Source: a virus
Taxonomy: Duplodnaviria; Heunggongvirae; Uroviricota; Caudoviricetes
DNA length: 8,048 nucleotides
Virus record (IMG/VR): IMGVR_UViG_2802429244_000008
Coordinates: 1-8,048 of that record
Reading direction: 5' to 3' (one strand)
Part shown: positions 1-8,048 of the stretch, one piece after another
Position numbering within the stretch: the stretch's first letter is position 1
Layout: each line of letters opens with the position of its first letter
Position numbers and translations under genes: made by a program
The notes under the pieces: model-generated
Told to the model about the DNA's origin: nothing
The model's database searches: none
Seen by the model: the letters and a program-made list of their open reading frames with translations, nothing else

Positions 1-33
1 GTCAGTGCATAACACAATCTCGCCTTACTACTA

Positions 34-108
<75 letters not shown>

Positions 109-111
109 ATA

Positions 112-187
<76 letters not shown>

Positions 188-249
188 ACTGGTTCCTCAA
201 GAGAAATAAAAATGACCGCGCTTTACATCCCCTTCGGAACCGAAGACGG

Positions 250-277
250 ATATTAATAATGCCGGTTCTTTTTTCAA
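250..277 (-). promoter_or_regulatory. Candidate sigma70 promoter for the tRNA pair
   Basis: On the minus strand: TTGAAA (272-277), 16-bp spacer, TAATAT (250-255), about 55 nt upstream of the tRNA-Thr 5-prime end. Sequence match only. Confidence 0.3.
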
Positions 278-385
278 TAGAAAACCATGTCAATATTCGT
301 AAATATACGTATGTGTTTTTGTTATTTCTGAATTTTAGAAAAAAACAACATGCGCATTTAACGTACTGCACCACTTTTCGGACAC

Positions 386-411
386 AAAAAAACCCGCCTG
401 GCGACGGGTTT
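386..411 (-). terminator. Rho-independent terminator ending the restriction-modification operon
   Basis: Minus strand reads AAACCCG-tcgccagg-CGGGTTT followed by a T run (complement of A7 at 386-392). It lies about 130 nt downstream of the S-subunit stop codon and upstream of the tRNA promoter candidate. Confidence 0.6.
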
Positions 412-541
412 AAGCTGTGTGGCGAAGTGACCACTCTTAACAGAGTATCCAGATTTTTACGATTGTAAACTGCTTTTCATGCATCGTAACGCGATAATCT
501 GACCGCTCTCCCCTGCCTGGCAAGGAAGTATGATGTTTCTG

Positions 542-1609
542 CTAATCGATTTTTTCAGATGTAACATGCCTGTACGCTGCCAGTTTTTTATCAGCGTACT
601 GGACGACATCTTTGATGACGAGTTTCTGCATGACTGAAATAAGGTTATGCATATAACAAAAGTCGGGTAACTTGTTTTTTACTGGCAACCAGATAACATC
701 ATTTTTGATTTTTTTATTGCTAACACTATTACCCCAAGAGTATTTATGTGAAATAGATTTATAAATACATGTAATTAGCCCCAAATGAGTAAACATTGTT
801 CTACCATCTTCGTTATTAACATAAAGTCGTAAATTATGACTGTCGTTTGAAAAAAAGTCTCTTTCCTGATAAGTTACAACGAATGTCTTACCACCAATAA
901 AAATACAGTTCCCTTTCTCCAAGAGAGAAGAATCATAGGATATATAAGTACTGACAGAGTTATTCTCACGACTGGCACAAAGATAAGGAATATCTCCGCT
1001 GTTTTCTGTGATATCTCTGGACAATATGTTTCTCGTATTGCACACAGAGAATAATTCAGTAACAGGGAAACCTGAAAATTCAACATCCTTAAAGCGCTCC
1101 AGAATAAGATGATCTTTTTCCGTGAGTTGGTAATCGCTCAGTCCGGCAGCAACCAGGTATGTTTCCAGCTCTTCTATGTGGGTCGCTTCCAGCTCTTCTA
1201 TGTACTTTACCATATAATTATATGCAGGAACATTATTAAACGTAGGTATATTTATCTTTACCTTATTGAGAACATTCTCATTAAAAGAGCTACATCCCCA
1301 ACTAAACGTTGAAAAAGATTTTTTCATCGCTGATATAAGAAAAACAGCAATTCGCGAATTTAACTCTCCATGTCTGAGAGAAAAAATCTTTATTTTATCA
1401 CCTGTAAAATATGCGCTTTCCTGATAGAACATGGTCGCAGTATCCTGCCCAAAGCTAATTGTATTACCAGGGTTGAGATATGTTTTATCTTCATCTATAT
1501 ATCCTTTTATGCCGTTATTGTTACTTCCTCTCGCAACATAAGGATAGTTGCCATTAAATGTTAATTTATTGGCATTAAATTTCTTTTTAGGTGTCTGAAT
1601 ACTGAACAA
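542..1609 (-). CDS. Restriction-modification specificity subunit (HsdS/BcgIB-like, two target-recognition domains), 355 aa
   Basis: Size and layout fit an S subunit: two AT-rich variable halves separated by a central helical segment (YIEELEATHIEELETYL), with a more GC-rich conserved C-terminal tail. It sits directly downstream of the nuclease-methyltransferase gene. The start is TTG at 1609 with a weak, poorly spaced SD; there is no in-frame ATG nearby. Stop is TAG at 542-544. Confidence 0.65.
   Translation of the reverse strand: MFSIQTPKKKFNANKLTFNGNYPYVARGSNNNGIKGYIDEDKTYLNPGNTISFGQDTATMFYQESAYFTGDKIKIFSLRHGELNSRIAVFLISAMKKSFSTFSWGCSSFNENVLNKVKINIPTFNNVPAYNYMVKYIEELEATHIEELETYLVAAGLSDYQLTEKDHLILERFKDVEFSGFPVTELFSVCNTRNILSRDITENSGDIPYLCASRENNSVSTYISYDSSLLEKGNCIFIGGKTFVVTYQERDFFSNDSHNLRLYVNNEDGRTMFTHLGLITCIYKSISHKYSWGNSVSNKKIKNDVIWLPVKNKLPDFCYMHNLISVMQKLVIKDVVQYADKKLAAYRHVTSEKID
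1163..1203 (-). repeat. Imperfect 24-bp tandem duplication in the central spacer of the S subunit
   Basis: ttccagctcttctatgt occurs at 1163-1179 and again at 1187-1203 (17/17 identical, 24-bp period). It encodes IEELEATH / IEELETYL between the two target-recognition domains. Confidence 0.85.
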
Positions 1610-1683
1610 TCTTCCGATTGTATATTCTTCCCATTTACCACCAGATTTAATAAACTCCCGCTCAAGCTCTGCAAGACGGGAGT

Positions 1684-3816
1684 TTACCGCTTTTTTTCTG
1701 ACGCATCACGCCCCTGAAGAAGTTTTGACACTTCCCACGCAAGATAGTCCGCAACGGTCTTTTTAAAATCCTCCAGCGTCGGTCGGGTATCCACGGGCTT
1801 TGTCTGATTCCAGTCGTCCCCCCGGAGTGGATCTATCACATCCTCAAAATATTCATCTTCCGTAAATATACTGAGGCGGCTTCTGCCAAAATGCACCAAA
1901 TCAACAACTTCCTGATAGCGTTCTCTTGCACGATCCACATCCACAAGGTTATTTCGTGCCTTTTTCCGGTTCGTGCGGACATAACCATCATTCGAAAAGT
2001 CGATAAACTTCACCGGATGTTTTGAATTGTGCGGCAGTTTCACCTGGAATACATAAACATATGTCTGGACACTTGATTTACCAATAAACAAATCAGCAGG
2101 CATTTTTATACTGGCCAGTAGCGTATTCTCCTGAAGTATTTTCTGGTTGTATTCCTTCGCCTTACCTGAACCTGCGGACCCCTGAATAATCACCGCGGCA
2201 TACCCCCCTTTCATCATTGAAAGAGCCTTCTGCACGAAGATCATACCATTACCTTTCGCTGAATATGGCGGGTTCAGCACGAATGCAGTAGCCGGAAATT
2301 TCTCTCCCGATTTACCAAAACCATATCTGCCGTCAAAATCGGCCAGTGAGTCTTTGTTCAGGATGTTGGCGCTGCCATCGCCCATCAGGATCATGTTAAG
2401 AATCGCCAGCATGTAAATACTGGATAACACCTCAAGGCCAAGTAGCTGTTCAGCCTTAATTTGCGCCTCTTTCAGTCTGAGCTCATCCGGTGAGTTAATG
2501 TTCTCTCTGGCATCAATAAGCATCTCATTCATTGCAGCCACCAGCAACCCGGCAGAGCCCGTGGCAAAATCCCACACATACGAATCCCGGTTAACTCTGG
2601 CGAGTCTGGCCAGCAATGTAGCCACATAAGGTGGTGTCAGAACAACATCGTTCAGCTTATCCTGAGTAAACCCTAACCAGCGGTACATCTCATTAAACAG
2701 CTTTCCGGTAAAATCGGTCGTCAGTCCGATTTTGTAGTATTCCTCCAGGTCATCAACAACTTTAATAAATACCCGTTTTAACTGACTTTCACCATCGACA
2801 GGTTTATTAATATTTTCAGTCCACAGCGTATTCTGCAGAGTACGAAGGATCATATCCTTTTTGGTTTCCGGGACACCCTTTATCGTAAGAAAATTCTTAA
2901 CTTTTCTGAAAATAATATCGCCATCACGTTCCCCTTCTTCCGTTGAAGATACAAGCTCGCTTTTATCCAATGGGGTAAGTTTTCCGGGAATACCCAGAGT
3001 GGCAATAACCGTGGCTACAACAAGATAAACCCGATCACTTTCGCCAAGCCCCTTTTCATCCTGATAAATATCGTTGTTCAGACGGGAAAGTCGAGTGTCT
3101 ATCTCTTCCTCTTTGCTGGCCTTAATTTTTTCCAGTTCCTCAGGCGGCAGATTAAGGTGCTTTATCTTGTCGATAAATCCGTCAACATTTTTATCCGCAA
3201 GGAACGACAGATCAGTGTATTCACCAACCTTTTGTCCGGCCCCTAAATTATTCTTTGATACATGCCACACGCCAATTTCATGATGAAGTTCTCCTGTATC
3301 ATCATCGCACCAGCCTGTCATACCGATCGCTATAATATCTGAGTAGTTGGTAAACTGGAGAAGTGCGTTGGCATAATGGACTGCGCCATTAACCGCATAT
3401 CCATTAATGTTTTTAAAGTTCCATTCTTTTCTGGAATCTTTATTCTCGATGATACCGTTACTACCAAGCCGGATAAGCCTGTCCTTATAGCCTTTGTATT
3501 CGATAAGAACAGGGTACTGCCTGCCGTATTTGTCCTGAATAAGGAGTTTTACATCGGGACGGTTACCACCTGCGCCGCCATTTTTCGAAAAATAGGCGTC
3601 CAGGGCGTTATCTATCTCGCTGTTAAGTGGTGCCTGCTCCAGCCTGTAATCAAGCCCGTAAGATTTAAGCCATGAGTTCGCGAGGTCGGAAATTTGCGGC
3701 TCAACCGATTTTACCGTCTTTCTGGATTTACTGGTCGCTGGTCGCTGGTCGCTGGTCGCTGGTCGCTGGTCGCTGGTCGCTGGTCGCTGGTCGCTGGTCT
3801 GGCAGCATAGGATCAT
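1684..3816 (-). CDS. Bifunctional restriction endonuclease / N6-adenine DNA methyltransferase (BcgIA-like Type IIB/IIG enzyme), 710 aa
   Basis: C-terminal half carries gamma-class amino-methyltransferase motifs: VLTPPYVATLL, motif I DFATGSAG, motif IV NPPY. N-terminal region has a PD-(D/E)xK-like signature (RPD...VLIEYK). Residues 6-28 are the translated heptanucleotide repeat (TSDQRPA x3). An alternative ATG at 3806-3808 has the better SD (AAGGA, 7-nt spacing) but is out of frame at the present repeat number. Stop is TAA at 1684-1686. Confidence 0.8.
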   Translation of the reverse strand: MILCCQTSDQRPATSDQRPATSDQRPATSKSRKTVKSVEPQISDLANSWLKSYGLDYRLEQAPLNSEIDNALDAYFSKNGGAGGNRPDVKLLIQDKYGRQYPVLIEYKGYKDRLIRLGSNGIIENKDSRKEWNFKNINGYAVNGAVHYANALLQFTNYSDIIAIGMTGWCDDDTGELHHEIGVWHVSKNNLGAGQKVGEYTDLSFLADKNVDGFIDKIKHLNLPPEELEKIKASKEEEIDTRLSRLNNDIYQDEKGLGESDRVYLVVATVIATLGIPGKLTPLDKSELVSSTEEGERDGDIIFRKVKNFLTIKGVPETKKDMILRTLQNTLWTENINKPVDGESQLKRVFIKVVDDLEEYYKIGLTTDFTGKLFNEMYRWLGFTQDKLNDVVLTPPYVATLLARLARVNRDSYVWDFATGSAGLLVAAMNEMLIDARENINSPDELRLKEAQIKAEQLLGLEVLSSIYMLAILNMILMGDGSANILNKDSLADFDGRYGFGKSGEKFPATAFVLNPPYSAKGNGMIFVQKALSMMKGGYAAVIIQGSAGSGKAKEYNQKILQENTLLASIKMPADLFIGKSSVQTYVYVFQVKLPHNSKHPVKFIDFSNDGYVRTNRKKARNNLVDVDRARERYQEVVDLVHFGRSRLSIFTEDEYFEDVIDPLRGDDWNQTKPVDTRPTLEDFKKTVADYLAWEVSKLLQGRDASEKKR
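3731..3799 (-). repeat. Heptanucleotide simple-sequence repeat, 9 perfect copies (TGGTCGC on + strand, GCGACCA on coding strand) plus partial flanking units
   Basis: Perfect units start at 3732, 3739, 3746, 3753, 3760, 3767, 3774, 3781 and 3788 (63 bp), followed by the partial unit tggtc. The tract lies inside the 5-prime coding region of the nuclease-methyltransferase gene. Unit length is not a multiple of 3. Confidence 0.95.
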
Positions 3817-3836
3817 CCTTTTTCGAAAATCAATGC

Positions 3837-3845
3837 TTTTTTTTT
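3837..3845. repeat. Homopolymeric T9/A9 tract in the promoter region of the restriction-modification gene
   Basis: Nine consecutive T on the + strand (A9 on the coding strand), about 30-40 nt upstream of the candidate start codons. Confidence 0.9.
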
Positions 3846-3971
3846 GGAAAGTACTTAAAAATTATCGTGCTGGCTGAATCAATAACCAGCAAAGGGTATT
3901 AAGTGTGGGTGCGTTGAGGATGCCTGACACATCAGAGATGGCGGGAGATTACTTCCCCCGCCTGGTCACTC

Positions 3972-4127
3972 TTACTCTCCAGATTCGTAGTCTACGAAAA
4001 CAGCGACCTCCGTCTGGCCGGTTCGGATTCGTACCTCGCAGAGGTCTTTCCTCGTTACCAGTGCCGTCACTATGACGGTTAAACAGATGACGATCAGGGC
4101 GATTAACATCGCCTTTTGCTGCTTCAT
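3972..4127 (-). CDS. hok: Hok/Gef-family type I toxin (51 aa small membrane peptide)
   Basis: Translation MKQQKAMLIALIVICLTVIVTALVTRKDLCEVRIRTGQTEVAVFVDYESGE is, from memory, near-identical to E. coli HokD/RelF and Gef: a single transmembrane helix followed by the conserved RKDLCEV...TEVAVF..YES tail. Confidence 0.85.
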   Translation of the reverse strand: MKQQKAMLIALIVICLTVIVTALVTRKDLCEVRIRTGQTEVAVFVDYESGE

Positions 4128-4184
4128 AGCCTGCTTCTCCTTGCCTTTCGGCACGTAAGAGGCTAACCTGATGTTGTCATGCAT
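3972..4184 (-). CDS. mok: mok-like reading frame, an in-frame N-terminal extension of hok (70 aa)
   Basis: ATG at 4182-4184 is preceded by GAGG with about 6-nt spacing. It extends the hok frame by 19 codons, as recalled for mokC/hokC. Confidence 0.55.
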   Translation of the reverse strand: MHDNIRLASYVPKGKEKQAMKQQKAMLIALIVICLTVIVTALVTRKDLCEVRIRTGQTEVAVFVDYESGE

Positions 4185-4245
4185 AGGGAGCCTCAGATTA
4201 ATGTTAAGCGTCTTGCCGGACGCATAATGTTAACTGGGGCTTTTC
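4176..4245 (+). ncRNA. sok: Candidate Sok-like antisense RNA; boundaries approximate
   Basis: On the + strand, TTGCCT (4141-4146), 17-bp spacer, TAACCT (4164-4169) would start a transcript near 4176 that is antisense to the mok start codon and SD. A GC hairpin GCGTC-ttgccg-GACGC lies at 4218-4233. No clean terminator was identified. Confidence 0.3.
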
Positions 4246-4301
4246 TCTATCTGCCTTTTGGTGTTCATGCCTGAGACAGATAGCCTCAAGCACCCGCAAC
4301 A

Positions 4302-4329
4302 ATTCTACAAAAAATCATCTCAATTTCAA
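4302..4329 (-). promoter_or_regulatory. Candidate sigma70 promoter just downstream of Q (hok mRNA promoter and/or a pR-prime-like late promoter)
   Basis: On the minus strand: TTGAAA (4324-4329), 16-bp spacer, TAGAAT (4302-4307). It begins 3 nt after the Q stop codon. Confidence 0.35.
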
Positions 4330-4331
4330 TT

Positions 4332-4742
4332 TTACTGTATTTCTGCAACCGGCCTTCCAGATGAGCCGCGCCCAACATATCTGTCCATTTCCAGTCTGAT
4401 ATCAAGCATCATCAACATCCCATCAACTATCCCTTCAGCCTTTTGCAACAAACGACCAACCCAGCAATCCGAACGACCATGCTTTCGTGCCAGTGCCATG
4501 AACGTCATTCCTCTTACGTAATAATCCACCAGCAAATCATGCAAATCACTGTTATTCTTTTTCAGGCGAGCCATGCATCCACAAATGATCATCGCATCAT
4601 CATCACAACATTGCGGACGTGATTTAACCTTCGAAGGAATAAGCCCCTTGAATCCAGCAGCAATGGATGACCATGTAACATCCTCGTGGTTATTTGCCAC
4701 CCACGCCCCCCAACGCTCAAGAACCATCTGAATATCACGCAT
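4332..4742 (-). CDS. Lambdoid late-gene antiterminator Q (QuuD-like family), 136 aa
   Basis: N-terminal sequence [73 protein letters not shown] matches my recollection of E. coli cryptic-prophage Q homologues. It sits between the replication genes and the cargo region, the canonical Q position. Its ATG overlaps the stop of the upstream ORF (TGATG). Confidence 0.8.
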
Positions 4743-4999
4743 CAGCGCAGTACCTCCTGCACCAGTTTTTCAAACTTACCAACTTTGGTTTCCAGCTCTG
4801 CCACACAATCCACCAGCTCATCCACTGCTTTTTGTGCACGATGTTTCGCCTGCATCAGTTCCCTGAGCGCTGGCACCATATCCCGACGAATGGCATCTTT
4901 TGTTACACCTGTTTTTTCCAGTTGTTCCGCCTGTCGCAACATTTCCTGTGCCTGTTTACGTAGTTGTTCAGGGGTAAAAGTCATTGTCTGGTTGTTCAA
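4742..4999 (-). CDS. Hypothetical small helical protein (85 aa), translationally coupled to the helicase
   Basis: TTG at 4997-4999 overlaps the helicase stop (TTGA) and is preceded by GGAG with 8-nt spacing. An ATG at 4982-4984 lacks an SD. Predicted product is charged and largely alpha-helical, with no family recognised. Confidence 0.45.
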
Positions 5000-6387
5000 A
5001 AGAAACGCTCCATCTTACTGCTGTCAGTTCTTTTATTGCTGTATCTGCGCGGCTGGGGCTGCTGCATTGGGGTGGAAAGAATCTGTGCGCTTTCCTGATC
5101 CACAGGCAGAAAATGTCCGTTATAAAAACGCCGGTAAATCGTTCCCAGAGAACCGTTACGTTGTTTCGTGATATTGATTTCTGCGATGCCCCTAGCCTGC
5201 GTATCCGGGTTGTACACTTCATCCCTGTAAAGCATTAGAATGATGTCTGCATCCGCCTCTATTTCTCCGGAATTTTTCAGGTCTGAGTTCATGGGACGTT
5301 TATTGGGTCTGGACTCCACACCGCGGGAGAGCTGGCTCAGCGCAATCAACGGAAAACCACCGGATTTTGCCAGGCCTTTAAGCCCCTTTGAGATTTCACC
5401 CACGGCAAGGTCATGACGCCCCGTGGTTCGGGTTTTTATCAGCCCGAGATAATCAACCACCACCAGCGCCGTTTCCGGATATTTAATCAGGTGGTGTTTC
5501 GTTGTTGCGCATATCTCATCAATGGTCAGGTTCGCCTGGTCCACCATCCAGATATTGCGACCGGTCATCCGTCCCACCCCTTGTGAGAAACGCGCCCAGT
5601 CTTCGTCTTCAAAGTGAGCGACAGATTTCAGACGTGATACCGGCATTCCTCCAGCCGCAGATACCATGCGCTCACCAATCTGGATGTTCGCCATTTCCAT
5701 TGTGAACAGAAGAACACCATGCCCCTGCTCAGTCACCTTGTCGATGATATCCAGCGCCAGTTCGGTTTTGCCCATTGACGGACGAGCCGCAATAAATACC
5801 AGGTCGCCAGGCTCCATGCCGCCTGTTTTTGCGTCCAGTTCATCAATGCCGGTCATCAGTGTCCTGGATTTCTCCAGTCCCTGATTCCGGCATTCAACAC
5901 GCTCAACCACTTCCGGAAGCACATCATCAATATGTACCGGCTGAATAACGCCCTTTTCCGTCGACAATGAGGCCATCATGTTCTGTGCATCCTTCAGGGC
6001 ATCTTCAGCTGCTTCACAGGTATGCGCATCACGTAATTTCTGCAGCGCCTCATTCAGTGTTTTTTCTGCATCACGCAATGCGGCATTGCGCCGCAGCGCT
6101 GCAACATAGTGCTCCAGTGACGACTTCACCCAGGTTTTGCGCCCGGTATCAGTAATCACCGGGGCAAGTTCCGGCATCTCATTGCACAGCAGCACAGGAT
6201 CAATCACACCTGAAACACGGGCCTGTCTGCAGATGCCTGTGTAGATATCCCGATACGCTCGTACAGAAAAAACGTCCGCCGGTAGTGTGGCCAGAATATC
6301 CATCACTTCATGATCTGCCCCTCGCAGAAAAAACGCGCCAATGACAGCGCCTTCCAGGTCATCGTTACGCCAGACAGGAGAAGTCAT
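4996..6387 (-). CDS. DnaB-family replicative DNA helicase (phage type), 463 aa
   Basis: Walker A in the DnaB context AARPSMGKTELALD, a DnaB-like N-terminal domain and a RecA-like C-terminal domain. Its start ATG overlaps the loader stop (ATGA at 6384-6387). Confidence 0.9.
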   Translation of the reverse strand: MTSPVWRNDDLEGAVIGAFFLRGADHEVMDILATLPADVFSVRAYRDIYTGICRQARVSGVIDPVLLCNEMPELAPVITDTGRKTWVKSSLEHYVAALRRNAALRDAEKTLNEALQKLRDAHTCEAAEDALKDAQNMMASLSTEKGVIQPVHIDDVLPEVVERVECRNQGLEKSRTLMTGIDELDAKTGGMEPGDLVFIAARPSMGKTELALDIIDKVTEQGHGVLLFTMEMANIQIGERMVSAAGGMPVSRLKSVAHFEDEDWARFSQGVGRMTGRNIWMVDQANLTIDEICATTKHHLIKYPETALVVVDYLGLIKTRTTGRHDLAVGEISKGLKGLAKSGGFPLIALSQLSRGVESRPNKRPMNSDLKNSGEIEADADIILMLYRDEVYNPDTQARGIAEINITKQRNGSLGTIYRRFYNGHFLPVDQESAQILSTPMQQPQPRRYSNKRTDSSKMERFF

Positions 6388-7262
6388 GCTGCCACACCTC
6401 TGATACGAGAACGATAGCTGGGCCAGTTAAACGACAACCAGTTGCGTCCCCCGTCTGTGATCCTGTCGGCAATGCGGGGGCTGATGAATGCCCACAACTC
6501 TTCCGGTGAAAGGTTGCTGATCAGGATGGTGGGCAGGATGCTTTCGTACCGGGCATTGATAATTTCCTGCAAAATAGCCATTTCAGCCGCGCTGCCAAAC
6601 TGAACGCCGACTTCGTCGATGATCAGCAAATCCATTGACGCATAATGCTCAATAACTTCATCCGCTGTTTTTTCGCTGTCATTTCGCCAGCAGTTTTTCA
6701 CAGCACGGGTAAGGCGCATCACATCAGTAATCTCCACACTAGCCAGATGGTTACGGATGATGTGTTTTGCCATAGCCACAGCCAGATGATTTTTTCCGGT
6801 ACCACAACTGCCTGTCAGAACAAGACTGGTACCGTTAGCCAGAACATCCTCCCAGCTCTCCGCATAGCGGCGGCAGGCAGCAAGATTTCTGGCTGCATCA
6901 GAGTTAATCTCCTGATAGTTTTCAAACTCACAGTCGCGAAACCTACAGGCAACACCAGCATTCTCAATCAGCACATCAGCTTTCATTGCAACCAGAGTCC
7001 GATGTGTCACATCCATTTCATCCACCAGACACTCCGGACAGCGGGAAATTTTTGAGACAGCGCCCCCCTGCCGATCATCCCACACCAGTATATGCGTACG
7101 ATATTTACCGTGTTTTTCGCAGCATCCAACCCCTTCAGATTCCCGACAGGCACGGTAAGGCCATGGCTTTTCGCCATTCTGAGCAAATGCAATCTCTGCC
7201 CGTAACTCATCCATTCGCGCCTGTAGTCTTGTTTGTTTCTCACGTTGGTCAATCGTCATCAT
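6384..7262 (-). CDS. DnaC/IstB-like AAA+ helicase loader, about 292 aa
   Basis: Walker A LTGSCGTGKNHLA and Walker B LLIIDEVG. Preferred start is ATG at 7260-7262, preceded by GAGGTGA with 5-nt spacing; the ORF track's GTG at 7271 is the alternative. Confidence 0.85.
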   Translation of the reverse strand: MMTIDQREKQTRLQARMDELRAEIAFAQNGEKPWPYRACRESEGVGCCEKHGKYRTHILVWDDRQGGAVSKISRCPECLVDEMDVTHRTLVAMKADVLIENAGVACRFRDCEFENYQEINSDAARNLAACRRYAESWEDVLANGTSLVLTGSCGTGKNHLAVAMAKHIIRNHLASVEITDVMRLTRAVKNCWRNDSEKTADEVIEHYASMDLLIIDEVGVQFGSAAEMAILQEIINARYESILPTILISNLSPEELWAFISPRIADRITDGGRNWLSFNWPSYRSRIRGVAA

Positions 7263-7272
7263 CGCTGTCACC

Positions 7273-8048
7273 TCAGAATGTCAATTTGTTACTGGATTTA
7301 CCGAATTTGTCAGACATGGCTCCCAGGCCAGCCAGGACATCGACCTGTCGCTGTCGCCCACCTCCGTGAGCGGCTGGCTGTTGCCAGGTATCATCAAAAT
7401 GACGATCGGGGCCAAAGAACGTCGCTGCCTGCTTCACGAACTGTGTGCCGGTATTTCCTGTAGCACGTACCCAGGCGGCATACCGCTTCACGCCATCAAG
7501 CATGCTCTCCGGTTTTATTCCCTCCCTGATACGTGCTTTCCAGGCTTTGAAGGCTGCTGACTTGGAATTGCCACCAGCACGTTTGGGATATTCCTGCCAT
7601 GCCTGTTCAAATTCCGGTGAATATTCCAGTCGGGCAGAACGCGCTGGTGCAGACGCGTCAGCGGATGCGCCAATAGTTGATTCATTGACTGGTTCTTTGA
7701 CTGGTTCAAAAGAGTGACTGGTTCTGGGTGAATCTCCTGCACTACCCCCTGGTGCAACTCTTACACCACCTGGTGAATTTGCTGCACTAGGTAGTGAATT
7801 ATTTGCACTACCACCTGGTGAATCTTTTGCACCATCAAGACGAAGAAGATAAATATTGCTCGAGTTCCCTTTTTCACCTTTCCGGGAAACTTTTTTTACC
7901 AGTCCGGATTCACAAAGAGCCGTAATATGATTCATCACAGAACGTTTGCTAATCTCGCACTGATCAGCAATATGCTGATAGCTGGGCCAGCACTCGCCCT
8001 GATCGCTGGCATTATCAGCCAGCTTAATCAGAACCAGTTTTCGCAACG
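7273..8048 (-). CDS. Phage replication initiator / replisome organiser (lambda O-like), 5-prime partial
   Basis: N-terminal HTH region (ADNASDQGECWPSYQHIADQCEISKRSVMNHITALCESGLV), a low-complexity Pro/Gly/Ser linker that contains the DNA iterons, and a C-terminal domain. The reading frame runs to the window edge, so the true start is probably outside. Stop is TGA at 7273-7275. Confidence 0.75.
   Translation of the reverse strand, partial: LRKLVLIKLADNASDQGECWPSYQHIADQCEISKRSVMNHITALCESGLVKKVSRKGEKGNSSNIYLLRLDGAKDSPGGSANNSLPSAANSPGGVRVAPGGSAGDSPRTSHSFEPVKEPVNESTIGASADASAPARSARLEYSPEFEQAWQEYPKRAGGNSKSAAFKAWKARIREGIKPESMLDGVKRYAAWVRATGNTGTQFVKQAATFFGPDRHFDDTWQQPAAHGGGRQRQVDVLAGLGAMSDKFGKSSNKLTF
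7686..7823. repeat. Iteron-like direct repeats inside the O-like gene (candidate phage replication origin)
   Basis: Set A: TGACTGGTTC three times (7686, 7698, 7715). Set B: four copies of roughly TGCACTACCNCCTGGTGAAT at about 22-bp spacing (7738-7757, 7764-7778, 7783-7799, 7804-7823), with internal dyad CACC.GGTG. Confidence 0.5.

Follow-up and report, generated by a model that had tools for sequence, protein, structure and literature searches.

The closest relative of the locus described here is hokW-sokW of phages 933W and Sp5, an experimentally established type I toxin-antitoxin pair in which the toxicity of HokW is neutralised by sokW expressed from its own promoter (PMC8621323). Mitomycin C removes the sokW RNA and brings about a RecA-dependent induction of HokW, and phage release from a hokW-sokW deletion strain is about twofold lower (PMC8621323). 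At the protein level, HokW is only 44% identical to the Hok toxin of plasmid R1 (PMC8621323). A related locus was found in IMG/VR virus record IMGVR_UViG_2802429244_000008 (Caudoviricetes), of which positions 1 to 8,048 were analysed (the window). It very probably represents an intact hok-mok-sok module of the hokW/hokD type, spanning approximately nt 4329-3858 on the minus strand and forming the leader of a prophage gene cassette, and it shares 93.2% nucleotide identity with the 933W/Sp5 hokW-mokW-sokW locus over the 406-nt module. A find of this kind is ordinary, its closest relative having been characterised already; the repeat-controlled restriction enzyme that lies downstream is a more unusual by-product of the analysis than hok/sok itself.

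Open reading frames (ORFs), Pfam and Rfam agree on a Hok/Gef toxin of 51 amino acids (aa) with an in-frame mok extension directly after the gene for the Q antiterminator, the arrangement given in a preliminary description of the window, and Q was confirmed to lie immediately upstream of hok (Table 1). The Hok translation, MKQQKAMLIALIVICLTVIVTALVTRKDLCEVRIRTGQTEVAVFVDYESGE, comprises the last 51 codons of a 70-aa ORF that ends in a stop codon at 3974-3972. Pfam family PF01848 (HOK_GEF) matches it along its whole profile (1-42 of 42) with 79.8 bits (cutoff 22, E=1.1e-22), while Rfam family RF01794 ('sok') matches 4122-4295(-) over the full length of the model, 1-157, with 117.5 bits (gathering threshold 59, E=5e-27). 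The Rfam model has the sense orientation of the hok mRNA and its consensus ends at the hok AUG, and so it vouches for the leader, not for the Sok strand. The identification as Hok/Gef plus sok is far beyond chance. The mok start is at the same position as that of the annotated mokW of 933W; the overlapping, in-frame mok is thus present as in the hok/sok family, and its coupling to hok translation is predicted.

Promoter-like elements on both strands, proposed earlier as evidence of a convergent antisense gene, could be located precisely. The hok promoter, which begins 3 nt past the Q stop codon, has 10 of 12 consensus matches and was the sole sigma-70-like site detected by a promoter scan of 3600-4800; its -10 element is conserved across the family alignments. 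The sok promoter, on the opposite strand, lies in a stretch identical to 933W, where sokW is annotated. The 5′ end of Sok was set opposite mok nt +9, as for the annotated sokW (933W) and sokC (K-12), which puts the start at 4176. In the predicted RNA, an unpaired 5′ tail covers the mok start and is followed by a long terminator hairpin and CUUUUCUCU. Folding of 4176-4250 gave -33.1 kcal/mol (z=-5.3). An opposite-strand promoter, a 5′ tail and a terminator hairpin, the features expected of a Sok RNA, can therefore all be recognised in the sequence.

The predicted hok mRNA (4295-3860) folds with a minimum free energy (MFE) of -170.5 kcal/mol (z=-6.7). In the MFE structure its first 12 nt, the tac element, pair with the fold-back inhibition element (fbi) near the 3′ end, so that the long-range tac-fbi pairing of the hok family is present in the predicted fold. 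The two partners co-vary between family members, being GGGUGCCUGAGA and UCUCAUGGCACCC in hokB and GGCGCUU and AAGCGCC in R1-type hok. Directly past the hok stop codon is a conserved hairpin in the 3′ untranslated region (3′-UTR). It had been tentatively assigned to the hok mRNA, which holds, at 3939-3961, which was corrected to 3940-3962; it does not mark the 3′ end of the mRNA, as both fbi and a terminator-like hairpin come after it. The terminator-like hairpin is modest (centroid about -11 kcal/mol) and, together with the CGAUAAUUUUU that follows, probably forms the 3′ end of the hok mRNA, which is predicted to lie past the hairpin and its T-run and may be leaky. In relatives carrying the same cassette, a different hairpin followed by UAAUUUUUU occupies this place. 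The functional hok locus accordingly reaches approximately 3858, about 115 nt past position 3972, where the preliminary description had placed its left boundary.

The module is common and well preserved. With a 410-nt query (3899-4308), matches were obtained in 4,933 of 5,426 complete E. coli genomes, the median being two matching places in each; they are annotated as hokD or Hok/Gef, and the best identity is 96.6%. The query also matched 110 phage records, including hokW/mokW/sokW of 933W. From 80 IMG/VR loci, together with fetched E. coli and phage loci, 59 distinct full-length modules were extracted; Hok was intact (51 aa) in all 59, and the 70-aa mok in 52. The MFE structure of the window was then examined on 62 aligned sequences, including hokB and R1-type hok, with slid-partner controls. 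Its base pairs could form in 92.8% of cells (38-44% in the controls), and pairs changed on both sides numbered 27 (10-14 in the controls). The tac-fbi helix was 98.8% paired, and the 3′-UTR hairpin (helix 17) 96.4%, with two G-C to A-U compensated positions in 11 and 15 of the sequences; the 5′ hairpin of the mRNA showed an A-U to G-C swap in 20. Column entropies over 60 relatives, which average 0.20 bits for the whole module, were lowest in tac (0.01), the hok Shine-Dalgarno (SD) sequence and AUG (0.04), hok codons 2-44 (0.06), the sok promoter (0.08) and fbi (0.08). The most variable stretch of the module is mok codons 2-6 (4167-4181(-), 0.77 bits), the target of the Sok 5′ tail. The MHDNI version of the window is similar to R1-type mok and recurs at just one further locus (L060). 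This variability suggests that the specificity of Sok may have diversified.

Table 1. Features of the hok/sok locus and its surroundings. Positions are those of the window, except for the last five rows, where they are those of the named locus.
Feature	Position	Strand	Details
hok promoter	4302-4329	(-)	-35 TTGAAA 4329-4324, 16-nt spacer, -10 TAGAAT 4307-4302
Predicted full-length hok mRNA	3858-4295	(-)	~435 nt; 5′ end G4295 by homology (Rfam model, family alignment)
tac	4284-4295	(-)	GGGUGCUUGAGG; first 12 nt of hok mRNA, 5′ half of the 5′-3′ lock
mok frame	3972-4184	(-)	70 aa; ATG 4184, SD-like CUGAGG 4196-4191; frame and stop of hok
hok toxin gene	3972-4127	(-)	51 aa; ATG at 4127, SD AAGGAG 4142-4137
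sok promoter	4141-4169	(+)	-35 TTGCCT 4141-4146, 17-nt spacer, -10 TAACCT 4164-4169
Predicted Sok antisense RNA	4176-4248	(+)	~69-73 nt; start opposite mok nt +9
3′-UTR hairpin	3940-3962	(-)	directly past hok stop; conserved
fbi (fold-back inhibition)	3907-3919	(-)	CCUCAACGCACCC; pairs with tac in the MFE fold
Terminator-like hairpin	3868-3891	(-)	followed by CGAUAAUUUUU; feature extends to 3858
Q antiterminator	4332-4742	(-)	136 aa, 933W type; PF06530 E=1.5e-51; 79% identical to 933W Q
Heptanucleotide repeat (GACCAGC)x9	3737-3799	(-)	inside 5′ end of restriction-modification ORF
Type IIG restriction endonuclease-methyltransferase fusion (BcgI-A-like)	1684-3816	(-)	PADLOC REase_MTase_IIG E=8e-227; Pfam N6_Mtase
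Specificity subunit (Type II/BcgI-B-like)	542-1609	(-)	PADLOC Specificity_II E=5e-22; Pfam Methylase_S E=3e-27
Homolog of 933W pR′/qut/first terminator	390-469	(-)	-35 TTTACA 469-464, -10 TACTCT 447-442, intrinsic terminator 411-390
Array-spanning ORF, L001	5519-6136
Array-spanning ORF, L004	6099-6770
Array-spanning ORF, L091	6635-7075
Array-spanning ORF, L092	6553-7077
Array-spanning ORF, L126	2969-3508

The position of the module relative to the phage late promoter was determined by comparison with 933W. There, the annotated pR′ and the Q stop codon overlap, with qut and terminators next in line; in Sp5, both a PR′ 'closely associated with Q' and the terminated transcript that it gives, StxS, have been mapped by differential RNA sequencing (dRNA-seq) and Term-seq (PMC7547250). 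A query consisting of the 933W Q end, pR′, qut and terminator had one match in the window, at 471-384(-), with 81% identity over 91 nt. The match holds the conserved GTTAAGAGTGGTCAC...GCCAC block, and its terminator was rated strong by a terminator scan. It lies 3.9 kb downstream of Q, after hok and the restriction-modification (RM) and specificity (S) genes. This pR′/qut/terminator module is conserved in 13 phages, and in cassette carriers it is always found after the S gene. The hok promoter was considered as a candidate for pR′ and rejected, the match at 471-384(-) being the only one to the 933W module in the window. In the relative TUM9812, Q is of a different type (44% identical), and the region downstream of it is uninformative for a pR′ search. 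The neighbourhood is that of the Q-pR′-stx cargo site of lambdoid and Stx phages. In 933W, Q is followed by pR′, then by tRNAs and stx, and both kinds of cargo are downstream of pR′ and Q-dependent, whereas the cassette of the window is upstream of pR′, in the gap that separates Q from the promoter on which it acts.

Several smaller features were noted around the two ends of this interval. Beyond the pR′ homolog are tRNA-Thr(UGU) and tRNA-Gly(UCC) genes (34-187(-)), where 933W has ileZ-argN-argO, and the 3′ part of the 933W tR′/StxS is missing. In several IMG/VR phages (L019, L059, L064 and L066), too, the pR′ module is set apart from a 933W-type Q, there by 0.5-1 kb. The last ~13 codons of Q (4332-4370(-)) differ from those of 933W Q, and just upstream of the displaced pR′, at 472-541(-), is a weak remnant of the 933W Q 3′ end (TTGCCAGGCAGGGGAGA vs TTGCCGGGAGGGAGA). 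Read together, these sequences suggest that the cassette inserted within the 3′ end of Q.

In a 30-kb sister contig, the repressor, cro and replication genes are followed by Q-hok-RM-S, all on one strand, and a scan of 3600-4800 found no terminator-like site between Q and hok. By gene order, hok is therefore co-oriented and contiguous with the cro-replication-Q genes; it sits at the early (pR) operon's distal end, with the late operon further downstream, and read-through from pR into hok upon induction is plausible.

The cassette between Q and the pR′ homolog occupies about 3.8 kb and consists of hok/sok, a heptamer repeat, a gene for a Type IIG enzyme and a specificity gene. The order Q-hok-repeat-RM-S-pR′ was found in all six relatives checked: phage PhiR12_3 (L001), E. 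coli JNEC-KY171 (L004), an IMG/VR contig (L058), strain 2013C-3033 (L091), in which the pR′ homolog is followed immediately by stx1c, an O111:H8 strain (L092) and OkiPb01714 (L093). Locus L126 also has hok/sok, the repeat and the restriction-methylase and specificity genes together. Among the 5,426 complete E. coli genomes, the restriction gene is present in 30 and the Q-hok junction in 29, all of them within the 30. The thirtieth genome, E7-1N7, keeps hok-repeat-RM-S behind a different Q and two extra genes. Since hok is directly upstream of the enzyme in 30/30 genomes, its linkage to the restriction genes is tighter than its linkage to Q, and the connection with adjacent cargo raised in the preliminary description is backed by this strict co-occurrence. 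In 78 of the 80 IMG/VR loci, hok is without this enzyme and does not abut Q. A scan of species-representative genomes with the enzyme protein returned only relatives of 45-72% identity (Clostridia, Helicobacter, Flavobacterium and others); these had neither hok nor the heptamer, and the scan turned up no enterobacterial source. As the relatives outside the enterobacteria are without hok, the association of hok with the enzyme probably arose within this phage lineage. No promoter-like site other than the hok promoter was detected between hok and the enzyme start codon (scan of 3600-4800). A further candidate for an independent enzyme promoter, TTGATT-18-TATGCT upstream of the enzyme gene, was rejected on reading the sequence, as transcription would start downstream of both candidate start codons. 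The literature search returned nothing relevant on hok beside Q.

A curious feature of the enzyme gene is the (GACCAGC)n tract at its 5′ end. One contig (L123) has seven copies and is otherwise identical to the window over 7,932 bp with no mismatches, while relatives have 9, 23, about 58, 58, 83 and 88 copies. Depending on the length of the tract, the body of the enzyme is entered from the frame of ATG 3816, from that of ATG 3808 (the start codon with the better Shine-Dalgarno spacing) or from one that lacks any start codon. At 4/7 loci the enzyme is in the frame that has no upstream start codon. In the 29 genomes, the Q-hok junction and the enzyme gene are 599 to 1,327 bp apart, and between several sets of sister isolates this distance is offset by multiples of 7. 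From its sequence, the tract looks like a device for phase variation of the enzyme. The literature search yielded no paper on the heptamer tract, nor any on phase variation of restriction systems in Stx prophages or E. coli. Reverse-strand ORFs annotated as 'hypothetical protein' or 'EmrB/QacA' lie on the heptamer arrays of five loci (Table 1) and are almost certainly spurious. In two distant homologs of the enzyme (L101 and L104, from a Clostridia metagenome-assembled genome and a Helicobacter sp.), a poly-G run (8-10 G) occurs some 130 nt into the gene, close to its 5′ end, as a different simple repeat at a similar position.

By homology with hok/sok of R1 and hokW-sokW of Sp5, the module would be expected to work as follows. 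The strong, constitutive hok promoter would give rise to a stable hok mRNA of about 435 nt, which tac-fbi pairing would close both to ribosomes and to Sok. Slow trimming from the 3′ end would take off fbi and allow the mRNA to refold, and the short-lived Sok, of about 70 nt, would then pair over the mok start, blocking translation of mok and hence the coupled translation of hok, and marking the duplex for decay. Should sok transcription stop, Sok would be lost first and the stored hok mRNA would be translated, so that the 51-aa Hok would enter the inner membrane and kill or lyse the cell. Loss of the element, an infecting phage that halts host transcription, or induction of the prophage could each shut off sok. 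The most likely roles on this analysis are addiction to, and stabilisation of, the cassette or prophage, perhaps help with lysis on induction, which has been shown for hokW-sokW, and perhaps abortive infection.

Several observations weigh against this interpretation. The NCBIfam Hok models match the toxin but score under their curated cutoffs (54.3 vs 73). Judged against the consensus, the sok promoter is weak, with 4/6 and 3/6 matches, and it falls below the threshold of the promoter scan, and the ends of both Sok and the hok mRNA were placed by homology alone. When 3′-truncated forms of the hok mRNA were folded, the 5′ end refolded, but the accessibility of the mok AUG rose from 0.09 to only 0.20-0.30 and that of the mok SD did not rise; activation by 3′ trimming was thus not demonstrated in silico, the predicted shifts being too small to count. 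The induction phenotype of hokW may not transfer to this locus, because hokW of 933W is near attR, outside the pR operon. Lastly, the proposed roles are not mutually exclusive, and the sequence cannot separate them.

Two rival explanations are not favoured. Degraded copies are common in the hok family: from K-12 hokD the region with tac, mok and sok is missing, and IS186 cuts hokC downstream. The present locus might likewise be a decaying relic, similar to hokD/relF, with no working regulation or toxin. A hok frame disrupted in close relatives had been named beforehand as one mark of such decay, but the frame is intact in all 59 distinct relatives. The promoter, tac, mok, sok promoter, Sok hairpin, hok and fbi are all present in the window, the regulatory elements are among the most conserved columns, and compensatory changes maintain the fold of the mRNA. 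Intact Hok in the relatives and these compensatory changes therefore indicate that the locus is not a relic, which would be highly improbable. It was also proposed originally that Q-modified transcription from pR′ drives hok, tying the toxin to the late phase. The toxin gene is indeed co-oriented with Q and begins, with its promoter, 3 nt past the Q stop, at the position taken by pR′ in 933W. However, the hok promoter region has no similarity to the conserved pR′/qut module, and its -10 element and transcribed part travel with hok, including at loci without Q nearby. The sole pR′ homolog, with its terminator, lies 3.9 kb downstream, after the S gene as in other cassette carriers; because hok (4127-3972) is upstream of it (469-390(-)), Q-dependent transcription of hok is not supported and is very unlikely.

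If the module is intact, as preferred here, the question becomes what it does for its carrier. It may serve the cassette itself, as an obligatory leader that provides the addiction which an often switched-off, single-polypeptide Type IIG enzyme would be unable to give, and whose strong promoter would express the enzyme by reading through a leaky terminator. The 30/30 linkage of hok to the enzyme, which extends to a genome with a different Q type and neighbours, points this way, as do the modest terminator-like hairpin, the lack of another promoter-like site before the enzyme start, the four of seven loci with the enzyme out of frame, and the enzyme relatives outside the enterobacteria that have no hok. 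The co-occurrence may, however, reflect a single ancestral acquisition, the carriers being ~82-90% identical to the window here; read-through is a prediction only, and hok of the same type occurs in many phages without the enzyme (the 78 of 80 IMG/VR loci). A cassette-level role is possible but doubtful. In the lytic cycle, transcription from the induced pR through Q into hok could collide head-on with that of sok, so that Sok is lost and Hok aids lysis and release. The response of hokW-sokW to mitomycin C and the ~twofold lower release from the deletion strain (PMC8621323) are consistent with this; hok is co-directional with the whole early operon, no terminator-like site intervenes between it and Q, and Q, where near hok, was always co-oriented with it in the loci examined. 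Against it, hokW of 933W is outside the pR operon, so the published effect is independent of this geometry, transcriptional interference is itself conjectural, and early Hok could also lower the burst size; such a role is likewise possible but doubtful. A contribution to abortive infection, in which hok/sok and the restriction enzyme would form a two-layer defence island against other phages, appears unlikely. The module does adjoin an RM system on a prophage, and R1 hok/sok on a high-copy plasmid is cited as lowering the plating efficiency and plaque size of T4 (Pecota and Wood 1996, via PMC8621323), but what was reported for R1, at high copy number, is a modest effect, and a PADLOC scan had no model matching Mok or Hok. 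In a reading that combines these ideas, hok/sok would be no stand-alone addiction gene but the indispensable head of a mobile cassette for defence (hok/sok-(GACCAGC)n-Type IIG RM-specificity) placed between Q and pR′. The hok promoter and a leaky terminator would then feed the enzyme gene, the heptamer would switch the enzyme frame, hok/sok would prevent the population from losing the cassette whenever the enzyme is off, and read-through of the induced early operon would silence sok by collision and time the release of Hok to lysis. That all four parts hold is improbable.

Placement between Q and pR′ implies that the cargo would be expressed with the early genes or from its own promoter, and not with the late genes. 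This matters for predicting the regulation of stx-adjacent cargo, as one carrier has stx1c past the displaced pR′. The strict linkage of hok to the enzyme suggests a testable case of a toxin-antitoxin module that stabilises or drives a defence cassette, and the heptamer tract, if it acts as proposed, would be a case, uncommon in E. coli prophages, of a restriction-modification system made phase-variable by a repeat.

The comparison with R1 and chromosomal hok genes that had been suggested for this locus was carried out against R1-type hok, hokB, hokC and hokD. An invariant GCCTCTTAC / CAAGGAGAA core is present in all 62 aligned sequences, R1-type included. The hok/sok (parB) system of R1 has the same tac-fbi lock, mok/hok overlap, Sok promoter within the leader and Sok hairpin terminator, and its fbi is likewise followed by a terminator hairpin. 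It differs in the tac/fbi sequences (GGCGCUU/AAGCGCC vs GGGUGCUU/..GCACCC in the window) and in a Sok hairpin shorter by ~20 nt, and it is plasmid-borne with a role in post-segregational killing, whereas the copy described here is in a prophage. The chromosomal hokB/sokB and hokC(gef)/sokC begin with GGGUGC..., as in the window; annotated sokC starts at mokC nt +9, and sokB overlaps the mokB start likewise. These have divergent toxins, a shorter Sok hairpin and a chromosomal context, and hokC of K-12 is truncated by IS186. Closer in sequence is K-12 hokD (relF, in cryptic prophage Qin), a name that RefSeq gives to many relatives of the module. Its coding sequence, 3′-UTR hairpin and fbi are homologous, with 47/51 Hok residues identical, but it sits behind relBE and has lost everything upstream of the hok SD, namely the promoter, tac, mok start and sok. 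The 933W locus is closest of all, with the same 70-aa mok, 51-aa hok, tac and fbi sequences and a HokW identical at 49/51 residues, the last two residues being those that differ. The -35 element is TTGAAA in the window and TTTGCG-like in 933W, and mok codons 2-6 encode MHDNI rather than MLNTC; because of this latter difference, cross-neutralisation is uncertain. The two modules also differ in setting, that of 933W being found past the tail-fibre genes, close to attR and opposite in strand to the late genes, while that of the window abuts Q where the early operon ends.

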